Part shown: piece by piece, positions 1,566-22,404 of the stretch
How the letters are laid out: every line of letters starts with the position of its first letter
Position numbering within the stretch: the first letter of the stretch is position 1
Assembly (NCBI GenBank): GCA_964424295.1
Contig: CAYRHZ010000002.1
Coordinates: forward strand, 1 to 41,293
Origin: an uncultured Candidatus Saccharibacteria bacterium
GTDB lineage: Bacteria > Patescibacteriota > Minisyncoccia > Phycocordibacterales > DATDWN01
Direction of reading: 5' to 3'
DNA length: 41,293 nt
Notes under the pieces: model-generated
The model's input: only the letters and a program-made list of their open reading frames with translations
Told to the model about the DNA's origin: nothing
The model's database searches: none
Made by a program: the position numbers and the translations under genes

Positions 1566-1943
1566 ATGATACAAGCAAGATCAATCGTTAAAATAGCTGA
1601 CAACTCTGGTGGTAAGATCGGAAGAGTTTTCAAAGTGCTGGGAAGCTCAAAGAAAAGATATGCTGGAATAGGAGAGTTGGTAGTTATTTCTATTCAAAAG
1701 GCAGAGCCAAGAAAGACAACTAAAAAGAAAGATGTTACTTATGCTCTAGTTGTAAGACAAAAAGCTCCTTTCAGAAGAAAAGACGGTTCATATATTAGAT
1801 TTGATGAAAACGCAGTTGTTCTTGTGGTTAAGGATCCAAAGAAAAAAGAACCAGTAGCAGGAAGAATTTTCGGACCAATCCCTAGAGAAATAGGAGAAGT
1901 TGGTTACCAAAAAATTATCTCTTTAGCGCCAGAGGTAGTATAA
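1566..1943 (+). CDS. rplN: 50S ribosomal protein L14
   Basis: MIQARSIVKIADNSGGK N-terminus, about 125 aa, correct operon position. Confidence 0.96.
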   Translation: MIQARSIVKIADNSGGKIGRVFKVLGSSKKRYAGIGELVVISIQKAEPRKTTKKKDVTYALVVRQKAPFRRKDGSYIRFDENAVVLVVKDPKKKEPVAGRIFGPIPREIGEVGYQKIISLAPEVV

Positions 1944-1954
1944 CTTTAAATAAA

Positions 1955-2173
1955 ATGAACGTAAAAAAAGACGACAAAGTAATAATTTTAACAGGAAAGG
2001 ACAAGGGTAAAACTGGTTCAGTAATAAAGGCTATGCCAAAAGATGGCAAGGTTATAGTTTCTGGAGTAAACATTTCTAAAAAACACCAAAAAGCTAGAAA
2101 GTCAGGAGAGAAGGGTCAGATAATTGAAAAAGCTATGCCAATAAGTGTTTCAAACGTTAAGAAAGCAAAATAA
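1955..2173 (+). CDS. rplX: 50S ribosomal protein L24
   Basis: KOW-type motif KKDDKVIILTGKDKGKTGSV. Position after rplN. Confidence 0.93.
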   Translation: MNVKKDDKVIILTGKDKGKTGSVIKAMPKDGKVIVSGVNISKKHQKARKSGEKGQIIEKAMPISVSNVKKAK

Positions 2174-2193
2174 AATAAGTAACAGCAAATATT

Positions 2194-2787
2194 ATGGAAT
2201 CAATTAAAACAAAAACAGGAAAAGCTTTCGAAGCACTAAAGGGAGAATTTGGTTATAAAAACCCTATGCAAGCACCTAAGGTAATGAAGGTTGTAGTTTC
2301 TTCTGGTATCGGATCTGTAAAAGATAAAAAGAAAATTGAACTTATAGCAGACAGACTTTCAAAAATCACAGGGCAAAAGCCATCTAGAAAGGGAGCAAAG
2401 ATTTCTATCGCAGCTTTCAAAGTTCGAGAAGGGGACCCAGTAGGAATGCAAATCACTTTGAGAGGCGCAAGAATGTATGATTTTCTAGACAGACTAGTAA
2501 ACATCGCTCTTCCGAGAACAAAGGACTTCCGAGGTATTTCTTCAAACGGAATTGACCAAATGGGTAACTATACTCTAGGAATAAAAGAAAACACTATTTT
2601 CCCAGAATCAGGAGACGAGGATTTGAAAGATGTTTTCGGACTTGCAGTAACAGTTGTAACAAACGTTAAAGATCCAAAGCAGACAAAAGCATTCCTTCTC
2701 CACTTAGGATTCCCATTTAAAAAGGTAGAAACTAAAGAAGTTAAAGCAAAGCTTGATCCAAAGAAAGGAAGATTCGCAAAGAAATAA
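2194..2787 (+). CDS. rplE: 50S ribosomal protein L5
   Basis: KNPMQAPKVMKVVVSSGIG and RGISSNGIDQMGNYTLGIKE are uL5-like. Position after rplX. Confidence 0.95.
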   Translation: MESIKTKTGKAFEALKGEFGYKNPMQAPKVMKVVVSSGIGSVKDKKKIELIADRLSKITGQKPSRKGAKISIAAFKVREGDPVGMQITLRGARMYDFLDRLVNIALPRTKDFRGISSNGIDQMGNYTLGIKENTIFPESGDEDLKDVFGLAVTVVTNVKDPKQTKAFLLHLGFPFKKVETKEVKAKLDPKKGRFAKK

Positions 2788-2790
2788 ACA

Positions 2791-2817
2791 AAAGACCACC
2801 TAACAGGTGGTTTTTTG
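2791..2817 (+). terminator. rho-independent terminator-like hairpin immediately after rplE
   Basis: accacct-aac-aggtggt (7-bp stem, 2795-2811) followed by a T6 run. Same ccacc/ggtgg style as hairpins at 20705 and 41186. Confidence 0.6.
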
Positions 2818-2822
2818 TTGTA

Positions 2823-2852
2823 TTGACAAAAAGCGGGAAAGTGTTATATAAT
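2823..2852 (+). promoter_or_regulatory. sigma70-like promoter (TTGACA, 18-nt spacer, TATAAT)
   Basis: TTGACA at 2823-2828 and TATAAT at 2847-2852, read directly from the sequence. Confidence 0.5.
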
Positions 2853-2899
2853 GCAACGCGGAAATGCCTACGTTTGGGCTATCCCACAGGAGACAGCAG

Positions 2900-3421
2900 A
2901 TGACGACAGCTACCGAATCGGCTACCACGACCAGTACGGAACAGGCCAGCACGAAGGACTTCTGGACGCAGGTCCAGGAGGTCGACCTCTCGGCCGTCCC
3001 GACGGATGCCATCGACCTCCACGAGCCGAAGGACGACGCCGTCGTTCTCGGCGAGGCGAGTGACATCTCTCGCAGGATCTACGTGGTGATGAACCGGGAG
3101 TCTCGCAAGTTCCACGAATTCGAGATTCAGCTTCTCGAGAAGGGAAGGAAGCACCAGGAGCTTCACACGGAATCGGGTGACGACGACCACAACTGCGCCG
3201 ACTTCAAGAAGGAAATCCTGCCCCTGGTGGAGGAGGGCAGGAAGCAGGCCGCACGGTTGGACCTCATCAGGTCCCTGTTCTGGACGTCGATGAAGATCGA
3301 CTTCCCGGACCTCGAAGGCAAGGAAAACATCTTCATCGCCCAGGGGTGGAAGGTGGGCCACGAGAAGCAGAGTCCCCGTGGCCGCTTCGGCGTCCGGGTG
3401 TACGAAGTTCAACATCGGTGA
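2900..3421 (+). CDS. hypothetical protein, GC-rich orphan (173 aa; T/S-rich acidic N-terminus, charged helical core)
   Basis: AGGAGA (2888-2893) lies 6 nt before ATG 2900. Tracked ORF 2864..3421 is the same frame. Strong G/C third-position bias. No motif I recognise. Confidence 0.7.
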   Translation: MTTATESATTTSTEQASTKDFWTQVQEVDLSAVPTDAIDLHEPKDDAVVLGEASDISRRIYVVMNRESRKFHEFEIQLLEKGRKHQELHTESGDDDHNCADFKKEILPLVEEGRKQAARLDLIRSLFWTSMKIDFPDLEGKENIFIAQGWKVGHEKQSPRGRFGVRVYEVQHR

Positions 3422-3498
3422 CCTGTTAGGTGCCCATCGGCACAACGGGTAGCGATGCATAGCTAGTCCGCTAAGTAAGTTCAGCGGCAGCAAACAGG
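3422..3498 (+). ncRNA. candidate structured RNA / 3' UTR element closed by cctgtt...aacagg
   Basis: cctgtt (3422-3427) pairs with aacagg (3493-3498). Enclosed hairpins are gtgcc-catc-ggcac, tagc-gatgcata-gcta and ccgct-(10 nt)-agcgg. Hand folding only. Confidence 0.3.
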
Positions 3499-3506
3499 AG
3501 TGTGTG

Positions 3507-3537
3507 GAGGTCGGCATCGTGCCGACCTCTTTTTTGT
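3507..3537 (+). terminator. rho-independent terminator of the GC-rich cassette
   Basis: gaggtcggc-atcgt-gccgacctc (9-bp GC-rich stem) followed by a T6 run. Confidence 0.8.
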
Positions 3538-3739
3538 TTGACTTTCAAAGGCTTAATTGTTAGTATGAACCCCGAGCTAATAAGCTCTATTTTGTTTGAA
3601 ATCATTCATATTCGGCGCATTTCTTTGTCGCCAGCTCCGCCTACTTCCTTTGCAGTATTTTTATACAGCTCGGTCGTATGCTCGCTGTCTTCGCGAACTG
3701 CATCCAAATCTGAATAATTTCAGAAATACATAAAACCTA

Positions 3740-3925
3740 ATGGCAAAAACATCAGTACTAGCAAGAGCAGCAAAGAAACAAAAGTTTTCTACTCGGGCAA
3801 CAAACCGATGTTTTAAATGTGGACGTGGAAGAGCATTCATGCGAGACTTTGGTCTTTGCAGAATCTGTTTCAGAGAGCTAGCCAATGAAGGAAAGATACC
3901 AGGAGTAAAGAAATCAAGCTGGTAA
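3740..3925 (+). CDS. rpsZ: 30S ribosomal protein S14, type Z (zinc-binding)
   Basis: 61 aa with CFKCGR...CRICFR (CxxC...CxxC) and C-terminal KKSSW. Precedes rpsH. Confidence 0.95.
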
Positions 3926-7645: not shown

Positions 7646-7680
7646 AATCTTTCAAATCTGACGAACTCCAATCTATTCAC

Positions 7681-7711
7681 AAAAAAGACCTCTAAATCAG
7701 AGGTCTTTTTT
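7681..7711 (+). terminator. rho-independent terminator after secY
   Basis: agacctct-aaatc-agaggtct (8-bp stem, 7686-7706), with an A-run before and a T6 run after. Confidence 0.7.
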
Positions 7712-7724
7712 GTACCCGTGTCAA

Positions 7725-7754
7725 TTGGAATTTATGGTCCTTTATGGTTATATT
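7725..7754 (+). promoter_or_regulatory. promoter-like boxes TTGGAA, 18-nt spacer, TATATT
   Basis: TTGGAA at 7725-7730 and TATATT at 7749-7754. The spacer contains the direct repeat tttatggt x2. Confidence 0.35.
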
Positions 7755-7771
7755 TGTGTTGGGGGGGATTG

Positions 7772-8185
7772 ATGAAGATCATCGTCGCCGACAGAAGAGG
7801 GATCGTTTTTTCTGCTATCGAGGCGGGCCTGCGCAAGAGGAACATTCAGACCCCGACTGTGCTGGCCAGGGACGGAAAGACACTCCGCGAGTTTCTTGGC
7901 CTCTGCGCAGACGTAGTGGTGGTTTCGGCACAGCTTTTGCCGGGCTACACCACCAACGAACAACTGGCAGAGGAGGTGAAGAAACAGTGCTCTAGCGCCG
8001 TGTTTGTTGTCTACAACAGCGTGGTGGAGAAGCACGGTCCAAACGTCGACCTTCGGATTCCCAGCTTTGTTGGTGGTGGAGACAAAACTATCGGTCTTCA
8101 CATCGTAGACTATCTTTCCGACCACGTATTCGTCGTCGGCACTGGAGTCTACGTCCAGCTCAGCCTTGTATTCTCGTTCGATTAG
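7772..8185 (+). CDS. hypothetical protein, GC-rich orphan; receiver-like (CheY-fold) pattern lacking the phospho-acceptor Asp
   Basis: GGGGGGA (7761-7767) precedes ATG 7772. MKIIVADRR..., VVVVSAQLLPG and VFVVYNS align by eye with the native receiver at 27239 (ILLVDDD, IILMDIIMPG, IIMLTNQ), but with Ser in place of the acceptor Asp. Confidence 0.55.
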   Translation: MKIIVADRRGIVFSAIEAGLRKRNIQTPTVLARDGKTLREFLGLCADVVVVSAQLLPGYTTNEQLAEEVKKQCSSAVFVVYNSVVEKHGPNVDLRIPSFVGGGDKTIGLHIVDYLSDHVFVVGTGVYVQLSLVFSFD

Positions 8186-8215
8186 AGGGCGGACTTTTTG
8201 TCGCCCTTTTGTTTT
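8186..8215 (+). terminator. terminator-like hairpin after the second GC-rich ORF
   Basis: agggcgg-ac-ttttt-gtcgccct imperfect stem followed by TTTTGTTTT. Confidence 0.5.
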
Positions 8216-8233
8216 GTATGATATTATATCTTT

Positions 8234-20826: not shown

Positions 20827-20840
20827 AGTTGATATTTAGG

Positions 20841-20868
20841 TTAGCATATTTTATGTATTAGGTATAAT
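20841..20868 (+). promoter_or_regulatory. promoter-like boxes TTAGCA, 16-nt spacer, TATAAT
   Basis: TTAGCA at 20841-20846 and TATAAT at 20863-20868. Confidence 0.4.
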
Positions 20869-20887
20869 ATTCCTCTCGGAGACCTTC

Positions 20888-21336
20888 ATGCCAGACAAGA
20901 ATGGCTAACCACAAAAGAGTTCGCCGACCTTATTTCCGTCGGAGAGTGCACTGTCTATAGGTGGATTTACGACGACATCATCCCGTACTTCAACAGCCGC
21001 ATACCAAGGAGGTACGCAAACAAGATCGAGAGATTGTGGGCGAAAACCTGCACACCTTCCGAGTTCGCTAGACATCTCGGCGTCAGCCCATCGAAAGTAG
21101 ACATTCTGATGAGTAAGGGGAAACTTCGGGGCATCAGGGTGCTGAGAAAGGTCAGGCTGTATCTAAAGGACCTGAAAAAGGTCAGAGAGGATAAAGACCT
21201 GGTCCAGAAAGGAGATGTTGTTTACAAAAACAAGAGGGGCTTTGCGCGGTACTCGAAGAAGAGAAAGACCGCGATTGCTCTTTTGGGTAACCATTCCCCA
21301 AACAGAAAGAAAAGAGGTAAAAAGGCAGATTTGTGA
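20888..21336 (+). pseudogene. frameshifted tandem excisionase/MerR-type HTH protein gene (GC-rich)
   Basis: GGAGA (20878-20882) plus ATG 20888 opens only MPDKNG*, with the stop at 20906-20908. The long frame from 20902 encodes two HTH units (WLTTKEFADLISVGECTVYRWIYDDIIP... and CTPSEFARHLGVSPSKVDILMSKGKLRGIRV...) plus a basic tail. That frame has no ATG/GTG/TTG before TTG 21034. Confidence 0.6.
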
Positions 21337-21339
21337 TTA

Positions 21340-21366
21340 GGGCGCCCGTGATTTTTCCGGGCGCCC
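21340..21366 (+). terminator. GC-rich hairpin after the HTH gene
   Basis: gggcgcccg-(9 nt)-cgggcgccc is a 9-bp stem. The downstream T-tract is weak. Confidence 0.45.
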
Positions 21367-21372
21367 GTTCTA

Positions 21373-21401
21373 TTACAATTTCATTAAAAATTTTGTATAC
21401 T
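21373..21401 (+). promoter_or_regulatory. promoter-like boxes TTACAA, 17-nt spacer, TATACT, 9 nt upstream of the partial tRNA 5' copy
   Basis: TTACAA at 21373-21378 and TATACT at 21396-21401. The repeat ggataggtgggtgag begins at 21411. Confidence 0.45.
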
Positions 21402-21410
21402 TGGAAAATT

Positions 21411-21425
21411 GGATAGGTGGGTGAG
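21411..21425 (+). repeat. 15-nt exact copy of the 5' end of the tRNA at 21529
   Basis: ggataggtgggtgag occurs at 21411-21425 and at 21529-21543, separated by 103 nt of mostly GC-rich sequence. Confidence 0.9.
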
Positions 21426-21528
21426 ATGGGTGAAGGGCAGAACTGCTTCTGTCCAAACCGGCCGAAGAGCCGACCACGAACACGCCGGATCGCTTTAGCG
21501 AATCCAATTTGAACGAAGTGAATATATT

Positions 21529-21615
21529 GGATAGGTGGGTGAGTGGTTTAAACCAGCAGTTTACTAAACTGCCGTCTGGGAAACTGGACCGCGAGTTCAA
21601 ATCTCGCCCTATCCG
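21529..21615 (+). tRNA. class II tRNA, Ser-type by architecture, with unusual anticodon ACU
   Basis: Acceptor ggatagg/cctatcc with G73, D arm ggt-gagtggtttaa-acc. Anticodon arm gcagt-ttACTaa-actgc (21563-21565). Variable arm gtctgg-gaaa-ctggac, T arm gcgag-ttcaaat-ctcgc. Confidence 0.7.
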
Positions 21616-21714
21616 CAGGATTCAACAAAATATATTTTGTTGGAGATTTGAAAGACGGAGCGCGACGGTGCGAGTCCGGGTAGGGAAAGTTTTTAACAAA
21701 AAACTATTCCTGAC

Positions 21715-21734
21715 CAAATCTCGCCCTATCCGCA
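21715..21734 (+). repeat. 20-nt exact copy of the 3' end of the tRNA at 21529
   Basis: caaatctcgccctatccgca occurs at 21598-21617 and at 21715-21734, 97 nt apart. Confidence 0.9.
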
Positions 21735-21735
21735 T

Positions 21736-22404
21736 TTAGTGCGCAATAGTGAATCCGTAAACGTTTACAGCTCCCATATCGAGTAATGTTTTCCGCGCTT
21801 CATTTAGTGTGCTTCCAGTTGTAACGACATCATCAATTAGAAAAACATATTTACCAGATATTCTTTCATCTGCTTTAAAACACCCAACGAGATTTTCTGT
21901 TCTTTCTGTTTTTGACTGGCTTAAACTTTGTTTAGGGGTTTCTTTTATTTTTTCAAACCACTGTGGCGCATACAGAAGAGTTCTTTGCAAATCATTCTCT
22001 ACTATAGCTCGGGAGATTAGTTCGCTTTGGTTGTATCCACGTTCAGTTCTGCTTTTTGCGGTCAAAGGAATTGGAATGAGAACAAACTCTGCTTTTGCAT
22101 CAAAGAGCAGTACATCTGAAATAACTATCAACATTTCATCGAAAAACATTTTTCCTATAGTTCCAAGAGGTAGTATATTTTCTCTGTATTTTAGTTCCCA
22201 TATTATTGCCTTCACTCGCTTGTTTTTGTATGAAAATAGGGGATTGATCCAATCGTTGTCTTGAACCCTCTCAGCTTTAGGTAGGGCATGTATACTTTTC
22301 TCGTCCAGCCTCCGGACTATCTCATAGTCAGACCTTACGGGCAATATGAAATCTATGATAGTTTTAAAAAATTCCAGCACTATTTCTATTGTATTTTTTA
22401 ACAT
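21736..22404 (-). CDS. comFC: ComF-family phosphoribosyltransferase-domain protein
   Basis: C-terminal PRT motif YVFLIDDVVTTGSTLNEARKTLLDMGA. The N-terminus has no Cys zinc-finger. Confidence 0.85.
   Translation of the reverse strand: MLKNTIEIVLEFFKTIIDFILPVRSDYEIVRRLDEKSIHALPKAERVQDNDWINPLFSYKNKRVKAIIWELKYRENILPLGTIGKMFFDEMLIVISDVLLFDAKAEFVLIPIPLTAKSRTERGYNQSELISRAIVENDLQRTLLYAPQWFEKIKETPKQSLSQSKTERTENLVGCFKADERISGKYVFLIDDVVTTGSTLNEARKTLLDMGAVNVYGFTIAH

Follow-up and report, generated by a model that had tools for sequence, protein, structure and literature searches.

Phage morons are promoter-ORF-terminator units (ORF, open reading frame) of atypical composition that sit between conserved genes, a concept reportedly illustrated by the P22 moron locus, and they are more often AT-richer than their surroundings. 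Flexible islets are pangenome hot spots that are flanked by core genes and exchanged by homologous recombination. Here we describe a small transcription unit that recalls both, located in a window of 41,293 nucleotides (nt; the whole stretch of DNA that was analysed) from an uncultured Candidatus Saccharibacteria bacterium. The unit lies in the ribosomal superoperon, between rplE and the S14 gene rpsZ, and carries a single ORF, hereafter X. With a probability of roughly 0.65, we read it as a monocistronic accessory cassette that occupies a natural terminator/promoter gap, is exchanged by homologous recombination in its flanks and encodes a partner-binding protein.

The gene for rplE ends at 2787 and that for rpsZ starts at 3740, so that 952 nt lie between two genes confirmed by Pfam, as an earlier reading of the letters alone (the sequence-only reading) had stated. 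The same reading had listed a terminator, a near-consensus promoter, an AGGAGA Shine-Dalgarno (SD) sequence and a 173-codon ORF rich in G+C at third codon positions (GC3), all of which were recovered. It had taken the interval for a single unit, whereas the 952 nt are a composite of the cassette proper (about 2823-3536), the native rpsZ promoter and leader (3538-3593) and an extra segment of 146 nt (3594-3739); the autonomous unit of promoter, SD, ORF and terminator stands. The features of the gap and its flanks are as follows.

2194-2787, plus strand: rplE, encoding L5 (197 amino acids, aa), the left conserved flank; Pfam Ribosomal_L5 and Ribosomal_L5_C.
2787-2819, plus strand: intrinsic terminator of rplE, a hairpin of A-tract, stem and T-tract; folding free energy (dG) -19.7 kcal/mol, z -5.75 against shuffles.
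2823-2852, plus strand: cassette promoter TTGACA-18-TATAAT, a 12/12 match to the consensus.
2866-2879, plus strand: short stem-loop GCCTA..TGGGC in the 5' untranslated region (5'UTR); a 6-pair consensus hairpin in four orthologous leaders with one compensatory change.
2888-2893, plus strand: SD sequence AGGAGA, 6 nt before the ATG at 2900.
2900-3421, plus strand: ORF X, 173 codons, of an undescribed protein family.
3422-3505, plus strand: 3'UTR with an AGTTCA motif, partly conserved across an alignment of four cassettes.
3506-3536, plus strand: intrinsic terminator of the cassette, a stem of 11 bp (3506-3530, 7 G-C pairs) with a T-run; dG -19.8 kcal/mol, z -6.0.
3538-3593, plus strand: native rpsZ promoter TTGACT-17-TAGTAT with a leader hairpin (3574-3587), also present in strains with an empty site at 95% identity.
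3594-3739, minus strand: second extra segment, 146 nt, separate from the cassette; the empty-site strains have 11 nt here.
3740-3925, plus strand: rpsZ, encoding zinc-type S14 (61 aa), the right conserved flank; Pfam Ribosomal_S14, 1e-23.

The cassette promoter is the sole perfect TTGACA-N18-TATAAT site in the 41 kb window, against a chance expectation of 0.01, and both TTGACA and GTGTTATAYAAT are conserved in the related loci L007, L011, L012 and L021; GGGAGAC, in the SD region, is conserved among the cassette orthologues. The rplE terminator is kept in L007, L011, L012 and L020, with one compensatory exchange of an A-U for a G-C pair, a hairpin equivalent to the cassette terminator was found in L007, L011, L012 and L021, and L007, L011, L012, L020 and L021 all keep the native rpsZ promoter and leader. 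The GC terminator that the sequence-only reading had placed downstream of X is present, although its stem measures 11 rather than 9 bp, and the structured tail described there proved to be a partly conserved 3'UTR (3422-3505), the fold signal being contributed mostly by the terminator that follows. The evidence for the 5'UTR stem-loop is weak because single-sequence folding of 2866-2879 is not significant (z 0.1); a role of the 5'UTR as a structured regulator was considered and set aside, as it offers only this 6-bp hairpin with one compensatory change. Rfam matches above the gathering threshold in the whole window are tRNAs only, and over 2700-3800, which includes the 5'UTR and the 3' tail, the best sub-threshold scores were 20-22 bits against cut-offs of 60-99. 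Two arms of 12 nt form a perfect inverted repeat (2797-2808, CACCTAACAGGT; 3421-3432, ACCTGTTAGGTG): one is the loop region of the rplE terminator, and the other begins at the final base of the X stop codon, where this allele ends early; as a recombination site the repeat was ruled out as a family feature, since the orthologous cassettes lack it.

X differs strongly from its neighbours in composition. The ORF has a GC content of 0.60 (0.60/0.37/0.83 at the first, second and third codon positions), whereas native ORFs in the window have a GC content of 0.37, with every GC3 value between 0.19 and 0.34, and GC reaches 0.59-0.61 over 2850-3450 compared with 0.31-0.42 in the neighbouring ribosomal genes. 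Predicted pairing with the anti-SD sequence is -7.1 kcal/mol for X, against values near 0 for almost all of the 34 native starts. Both the atypical composition and the lack of SD sequences in native genes had been claimed from the letters alone, and both claims hold. A minus-strand ORF of 212 aa (2879-3517) overlaps X; because GC3 is 0.83 in the plus frame, of which the pattern in the minus ORF is a mirrored shadow (GC1 0.77), the plus strand is the coding strand. Native gene starts in the window lack an SD and are A/T-rich upstream, and three GC-richer ORFs (starts 2900, 7772 and 21034) all carry one.

The empty junction that the sequence-only reading had suggested looking for in sister genomes is found in five near-identical strains of the same species (L002-L006), which are five contigs from five other samples, retrieved through their identical L5 protein. 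Their flanks are 95.6-99.3% identical to the window at the nt level and they lack the cassette. Here the rplE stop codon is followed by a 35-nt spacer with a different hairpin, GGGCCCC-ATA-GGGGC between A/T tracts (dG -20.8 kcal/mol), which is unlike that of the window in sequence and equal to it in strength, and then by TTTGACTTTCAAAGGCTTAATTGTTAGTAT, corresponding to the TTGACT-17-TAGTAT promoter, a small hairpin and rpsZ. The cassette is a true presence/absence polymorphism. Since the empty site already holds a terminator and the rpsZ promoter, the break between rplE and rpsZ (terminator, then promoter) is native to the lineage and not caused by the cassette, and the earlier view that the insert breaks the operon is not upheld. 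Window positions 1781-3464, and with them the left junction, are matched at 100% identity by a Logan contig of run SRR12762304, contiguous assemblies of other lineages have the same layout, and the flanks on both sides are collinear with relatives; the concern about misassembly raised in the sequence-only reading is thus answered for the left junction and for the overall layout, the right junction not being covered by that contig.

When 1.84 billion cluster representatives were scanned in full with HMMER (E <= 0.001), 47 family representatives were recovered, contrary to the first impression that the product of X matches nothing. After the window's own protein, the four nearest homologues (P0002-P0005; E 1e-35 to 1.6e-23, 40-47% identity) are all encoded between rplE and rpsZ: P0002 on a 119-kb contig of an uncultured Candidatus Saccharibacteria metagenome-assembled genome and in two further assemblies, P0004 on a 63-kb JGI contig, and P0003 and P0005 on short Logan contigs that run from the 3' end of rplE to the 5' end of rpsZ. 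X orthologues occupy the rplE-rpsZ gap in seven contigs (L007/L008/L009, L011, L012 and L021/L022), and the site and the architecture of the cassette are identical in five lineages. The common layout starts with the rplE stop codon, an ACAA-A/G-AGACC-R-CC hairpin, a T-run and GTT-R-Y-ATTGACAAA; it continues with GTGTTATA-Y-AAT, GGAAAGGCC, a small stem-loop, GGGAGAC and ATGACGACAGCGACTGAA, and it ends with a GC-rich terminator and then the rpsZ promoter. The orthologous ORFs have a GC content of 0.60-0.62 and a GC3 of 0.72-0.77, compared with a GC content of 0.38 in the rest of the long loci L007 and L012. The sequence-only reading of X as a one-off foreign insertion does not survive the finding of diverged, GC-rich orthologues with a shared control region in the same gap of at least five other Saccharibacteria lineages. 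It had also reasoned that the same gene at native composition in relatives would make X an ordinary lineage gene; this is borne out only in part, because the four closest homologues do sit in the rplE-rpsZ gap, yet are GC-rich.

A word-indexed protein search with the X sequence returned only the window's own protein and, with the family profile, four proteins; a scan of genome contigs with the close alignment gave one locus, in the same genome as L007, and scans of metagenome contigs with the X protein and with the promoter pattern gave no match. Literature searches on ribosomal-operon insertions, on GC-rich islands in Saccharibacteria and on the sample accessions turned up no account of this cassette. 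More remote family members (20-34% identity) stand alone among non-ribosomal genes, often with an orientation opposite to that of their neighbours, and with no conserved partner gene among the neighbourhoods compared. L013, L014 and L018 each have a TTGACA-type promoter, and these three and L019 have a long leader, a terminator and, wherever the start is evident, an SD; their GC contents, compared with those of their flanks, are 0.46/0.38, 0.57/0.37, 0.50/0.43 and 0.63/0.50.

We then compared X with rplE in the same genome pairs using the Nei-Gojobori method. For X, nonsynonymous divergence (dN) was 0.38-0.52, synonymous divergence (dS) 0.95-1.34 and dN/dS 0.37-0.55; for rplE the values were 0.05-0.08, 1.06-1.47 and 0.04-0.06, the ratios being rough because synonymous sites are near saturation. 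Ribosomal proteins and SecY are 86-92% identical among these genomes and the window, compared with 43-51% aa identity for X. At the DNA level, the control region from stop codon to ATG is 74-82% identical, rplE 79-86% and the X coding sequence 63-68%. Identities of X do not follow the distance between hosts: L011 and L012, the most closely related pair, share only 45% in X. These rates suggest that X is under weak or diversifying constraint and that it has either been resident for as long as the lineages have diverged or been swapped among them.

The divergence of the flanks bears on how the cassette moves. Relative to the window, L005 has 0-2 mismatches per 200 nt over 401-2400 and then 5 and 4 in the final 400 nt up to the junction; L002 has 1-4 over 401-2200 and then 5, 7 and 9. 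Within 2201-2794, in rplE, the counts for the empty-site strains go up from 0-2 to 4-9 per 200 nt. To the right of the junction there are 3-6 mismatches per 200 nt, and the most diverged stretch (10-25 per 200 nt) is the 3' part of secY, which lies beside a second hot spot. This clustering of mismatches at the junction points to import of the occupied or the empty allele, along with DNA from its flanks, by homologous recombination. Relative to the empty allele, everything from the rplE stop codon to the -35 element of rpsZ is replaced, with neither terminal inverted repeats nor a target-site duplication for the cassette (2788-3536), and no mobility function encoded by the element was seen, the window not having been systematically searched for recombinases. 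Gain, loss and swapping would most likely proceed by homologous recombination in the conserved flanking genes, with DNA plausibly taken up by natural transformation; Experiments have shown that Saccharibacteria are naturally competent and take up cassettes with ~1 kb of homology on either side into intergenic sites of their genome (PMC10633639). Both ends of the cassette are alike (T-run, GTT, TTGAC; 2811-2830 and 3530-3549 are 75% identical) and could mediate its deletion.

As for expression, the sequence signals suggest that transcription starts from the cassette's own consensus sigma-70 promoter, that translation uses a canonical SD of the kind absent from the host's own genes, and that the cassette's intrinsic terminator ends the transcript just ahead of the native rpsZ promoter. 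Because the unit has its own promoter, and its own terminator before the rpsZ promoter, its expression and that of rplE and rpsZ would be mutually insulated.

X is not the only gene found at this site. In L020 the rplE-rpsZ gap holds an unrelated 150-aa protein with an N-terminal transmembrane helix (GC 0.53, GC3 0.66); upstream of its gene are again the rplE hairpin and a TTGACA promoter, with a long leader and a GAGGAG SD. The same gap is thus empty in L002-L006, carries X in several lineages and carries other cargo in L020, as in a flexible islet, and is probably a recombination hot spot that takes at least three forms: without cargo, with a member of the X family, or with an unrelated membrane-protein gene. 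A sister cassette of the window lies between secY and adk.

7646-8233, plus strand: sister cassette in the secY-adk gap; GC 0.52-0.54.
7679-7713, plus strand: hairpin (dG -20.3), followed by a GGGGGGA SD.
7772-8185, plus strand: ORF2, 137 aa.
8184-8209, plus strand: terminator.

ORF2 has a GC3 of 0.61-0.63 and an anti-SD pairing of -9.5 kcal/mol. Its orthologues occupy the secY-adk gap of L007 (42%, E 1.6e-24) and L020 (52%), five more were found in the protein database, and L003 and L012 have an unrelated gene of ~280 aa in this gap, which would therefore seem to behave like the rplE-rpsZ gap. The AlphaFold model of ORF2 (predicted local distance difference test, pLDDT, 85) shows a CheY-like receiver fold (Foldseek E ~1e-3, TM-score 0.56-0.63). 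Because an invariant Ser52 stands in place of the expected phospho-acceptor Asp, as judged by eye from the canonical receiver motif, ORF2 may be a stand-alone pseudo-receiver; no relative was found in phage records or viral contigs. A third gap, between rplB and rpsS and thus upstream of the window, is expanded in relatives (L002 1179-1834, L007 2633-4069, L012 1806-2350). The empty-site strain L002 has 656 nt there and no gene call; in L007 the gap carries two GC-richer ORFs (148 and 104 aa) and in L012 one ORF of 85 aa, with no detectable similarity between the L007 pair and the L012 ORF. The cargo proteins of these gaps have no Pfam or PHROG match. Within the loci, TTGACA-N16-18-TANNNT sites occur upstream of the cargo genes and also of rpsS and rpsZ; the ribosomal superoperon of this clade is therefore naturally segmented by terminator/promoter pairs, with cassettes occupying the seams, where insertion would cost nothing in polarity.

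The structure of X was modelled with AlphaFold from a family alignment of 43 members, which also served for profile searches (mean pLDDT 89, predicted template modelling score 0.78). Residues 1-20 are disordered and rich in Thr, Ser and Ala; they are followed by a short helix (21-26), a strand (48-52), two long antiparallel helices (55-91 and 99-134) with arms of ~36 residues, and a beta-hairpin (144-154) that completes a small three-stranded sheet at the base. Invariant in the five close members are, at the base, DFWxQVQxVDLS, LG..S...RR, W128, K132 and FP, in the beta-hairpin GWKVG and, flanking the tip, H85, H89 and C99. The helical tip of the window allele reads LHTESGDDDHNC, and the spacing of H85, H89 and C99 makes a metal site that closes the tip possible. 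The body of the protein is acidic (family mean net charge -7.7). Many members end in a Gly-rich linker with an amphipathic or basic motif, e.g., LDRFLRAFEFRG, WMDRLFRRRGRSE and ILERIFGGARKH, which resembles C-terminal membrane-targeting helices or basic secretion tails and is a lead only. The window allele stops 30-40 residues before the four closest homologues and lacks this C-terminal tail. The 3'UTR has a weak out-of-frame resemblance to the homologue tails, which is not significant; a frameshift origin of the loss was considered, since another frame contains NIGDLLGAHRHNG, faintly reminiscent of MNLGDALQSG in P0003, and it is unproven, tblastn having found no significant remnant.

Nothing meaningful was returned for the X family from Pfam, PHROG, NCBIfam or PDB profiles, where the top PDB matches are de novo designed helical bundles. 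A search of PADLOC-DB gave only three single-member matches (E 0.003-0.007) among the 43 members and does not identify X as a defence protein, and Foldseek against PDB and BFVD found generic helical hairpins only (best E 0.33; none <= 0.001). We would describe X, with low confidence, as an acidic cytoplasmic, non-enzymatic and fast-evolving binding/adaptor or regulator protein, which in the homologues is perhaps tethered or docked through the C-terminal tail.

Several points weigh against reading the X unit as an exchangeable cassette for a partner-binding protein. The promoter, SD and terminators of the cassette are consensus matches only; recombination in the flanks was deduced from five short contigs with a modest number of mismatches; and the independent Logan contig ends at 3464, short of the right junction. 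The functional role proposed for X is without homology support (Foldseek E > 0.3), and the window allele, lacking the conserved tail, could be decaying. Finally, a GC3 of ~0.8 persists in genomes of GC3 ~0.25: X stays GC-rich without amelioration although its dS (~1.0-1.3) matches that of rplE, and the proposed exchange accounts neither for this nor for the GC-richness of the other cargo genes. Candidates to account for it are selection on mRNA or codon usage, or repeated exchange with an unsampled GC-rich pool.

The rival that survives best, although we consider it unlikely, is a recent horizontal acquisition in the manner of a moron, independently in each lineage but into the same gap, from a GC-rich, SD-using donor such as the actinobacterial host of the epibiont, its phages or a GC-rich mobile element. 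It is favoured by the GC3 of X (0.83 against 0.25), by a canonical SD in a genome whose genes have none, and by identities of X that are star-like (43-51%) irrespective of host distance. All hot-spot cargo genes are GC-richer than the host, distant family members are GC-richer than their flanks in four other contexts, and the third GC-richer ORF of the window is an excisionase-type helix-turn-helix (HTH) gene beside a tRNA gene, which suggests that mobile DNA here tends to be GC-richer. No donor was found, however: tblastn of X against 50,697 phage records gave no match, the viral contigs of IMG/VR matched neither X nor the promoter module, and the best match in 72,556 plasmid records covers 35 residues at E = 0.3. 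In amino-acid composition none of the 43 aligned members resembles the product of a 65-70% GC genome, the most GC-like being the ribosomal-operon copies, and a recent import from such a donor is not supported by this comparison. Moreover, the AT-rich control region accompanies the ORF and diverges at the host rate, and a single site and architecture are shared by five lineages.

Less probable again is that X is an ancestral gene of the lineage, inherited vertically and deleted in one strain cluster, and not an exchangeable unit. Vertical inheritance would agree with the same site and control region in five lineages, with a dS of X close to that of rplE in the same genome pairs, and with the cassette-type rplE terminator being common in the clade, even in L020, so that the empty-site hairpin is the odd one. 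It agrees poorly with the different gene at the site in L020, with divergence that increases beside the junction, and with the decoupling of X from host distance seen in L011 and L012 (45%); a dS of ~1 should also have erased a GC3 of 0.8 unless selection maintains the composition. Very improbable is a free-standing selfish gene of the homing-endonuclease type that cuts empty rplE-rpsZ sites and is copied in by repair: an intergenic position between highly conserved genes, an own promoter, the presence/absence polymorphism and flank divergence resembling co-conversion tracts would fit, but no GIY-YIG, HNH, LAGLIDADG or other nuclease domain was detected in the 43 members (Pfam, NCBIfam, PHROG), a helical hairpin on a small sheet has no nuclease-like structural match, and distant members sit in unrelated, non-polymorphic-looking contexts. 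An assembly chimera, or a real feature that is non-coding or encodes the 212-aa minus-strand ORF, is effectively refuted, for although the window probably derives from a metagenome assembly and X is shorter than the minus-strand ORF, the arrangement recurs in an independent contig and in seven contigs of other lineages, both flanks are collinear with relatives, the plus frame has the coding GC3 pattern of which the minus frame is the shadow, plus-frame homologues yield the model of pLDDT 89, and promoter and SD face the plus frame.

Returning to the exchangeable cassette, one may also ask what its cargo has in common. A bolder proposal, and a rather improbable one, is that the GC-rich, SD-bearing, promoter-equipped cassettes of ribosomal gaps (X, ORF2 and the L020 membrane protein) form a distinct class of Saccharibacteria genes whose composition is held by selection, X being a fast-evolving host-interaction factor that is membrane-docked or exported via the tail of its homologues, e.g., by the type IV secretion system (T4SS). 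An essential but substrate-less T4SS has been described in Saccharibacteria (PMC10633639). Were the proposal true, selection might act via tRNA or nucleotide conditions in epibiotic growth, or via resistance of the mRNA to A/U-targeting nucleases.

Further elements were observed in the window. The segment 3594-3739 carries a terminal inverted repeat that matches at 11 of 13 positions (3596-3608 / 3711-3723) and, on the minus strand, an ORF of 33 codons that starts with TTG (3606-3707). It has 16 nt, TTGGATGCAGTTCGCG (encoding LDAVR), exactly in common with an ORF of 45 aa that L007 carries between rplV and rpsC; protein similarity of the two ORFs is weak (E ~0.07), and the segment could represent a small mobile mini-gene or a remnant. 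A palindromic intergenic repeat of ~115 nt that starts with CAAATCTGRCGAACTCC occurs in L020 (7741-7860 and 9839-9955) and L021 (278-395); in relatives it follows the secY, map and rplE stop codons at a distance of 6-8 nt. The consensus forms a hairpin of 38 pairs, with compensatory changes in 3, and neither Rfam nor the viral contigs gave a match; the window retains a 5' stub of it after secY (7649-7675). A third GC-richer stretch (20830-21740, ~47% GC) lies between two tRNA-Ser genes. An ORF in it that ends at 21336 codes for tandem excisionase-type HTH domains (Pfam HTH_17, 4.7e-10; PHROG 'excisionase'), and the 5' part ATTGGATAGGTGGGTGAG and the 3' end AAATCTCGCCCTATCCGCA of the tRNA are each present twice, so that the stretch has the look of what remains of an element once integrated at tRNA-Ser. 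Adjoining this putative remnant, ARAGORN called a tRNA-Ser with anticodon ACT (21529-21616), where an unmodified A34 would be unusual for Ser.

The S10-spc-alpha block is the standard marker for placing uncultivated members of the candidate phyla radiation (Patescibacteria) and is usually treated as invariant. In this Saccharibacteria clade, its terminator/promoter gaps would be recurrent harbours for exchangeable single-gene cassettes, easily surveyed, and thus accessory-gene hot spots in an obligate epibiont with a tiny genome. The same gaps may be natural 'safe harbour' sites with matching expression signals, which could serve now that Saccharibacteria are transformable. X adds a new family of small proteins, confidently modelled in structure and a candidate for conflict of the epibiont with its host or with phages, and, with orthologues at GC3 ~0.8 in genomes of GC3 ~0.25 and synonymous sites saturated, an evolutionary puzzle. 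What is new here is the location at seams of the superoperon across species, the uniform foreign-style signals and GC-richness of unrelated cargo, the undescribed family and the persistence of its composition.

How, then, does the X cassette compare with known systems? Its fold has a long antiparallel hairpin on a small globular base, as in GreA/GreB, DksA and the N-terminal domain of HelD, and a tip that is likewise acidic with residues of the metal-ligand type (ESGDDDHNC in this allele). In X, however, the topology is different, with base strands on both sides of the inserted hairpin, and the likeness is one of resemblance only: there is no match in sequence or in Pfam, Foldseek returned no Gre or DksA, and HelD appeared only with a probability of 0.15-0.16. 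Like an integron cassette, the unit consists of a single ORF of foreign-looking composition at a recurrent site; unlike one, it has its own promoter, its 3' end is a terminator hairpin without an attC-like imperfect palindrome, and the empty site shows replacement of the whole spacer rather than insertion at a G|TT core. A miniature inverted-repeat transposable element or an insertion sequence is not indicated either, no terminal inverted repeat or target duplication being present for 2788-3536.

The two closest systems remain the moron and the flexible islet. As with phage morons, the X cassette is an autonomous transcription unit bracketed by terminators, distinct in composition from its neighbours, lying between genes that are adjacent in relatives, and dispensable, as strains without it exist. 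It differs from them in residing in the ribosomal superoperon of a cellular chromosome and not in a phage or prophage, in being GC-richer than its host and in having orthologues that persist at the same site across species. With flexible islets it shares a gap with alternative or no cargo, the lack of mobility genes, raised divergence of the flanks and a naturally transformable phylum (PMC10633639), whereas the islets described here are single genes in the terminator/promoter gaps of the most conserved operon, each cargo with consensus -35/-10 elements and an SD, a type of signal unused by host genes. The X cassette is thus moron-like in operation, yet behaves as the cargo of a recombination hot spot flanked by core genes.

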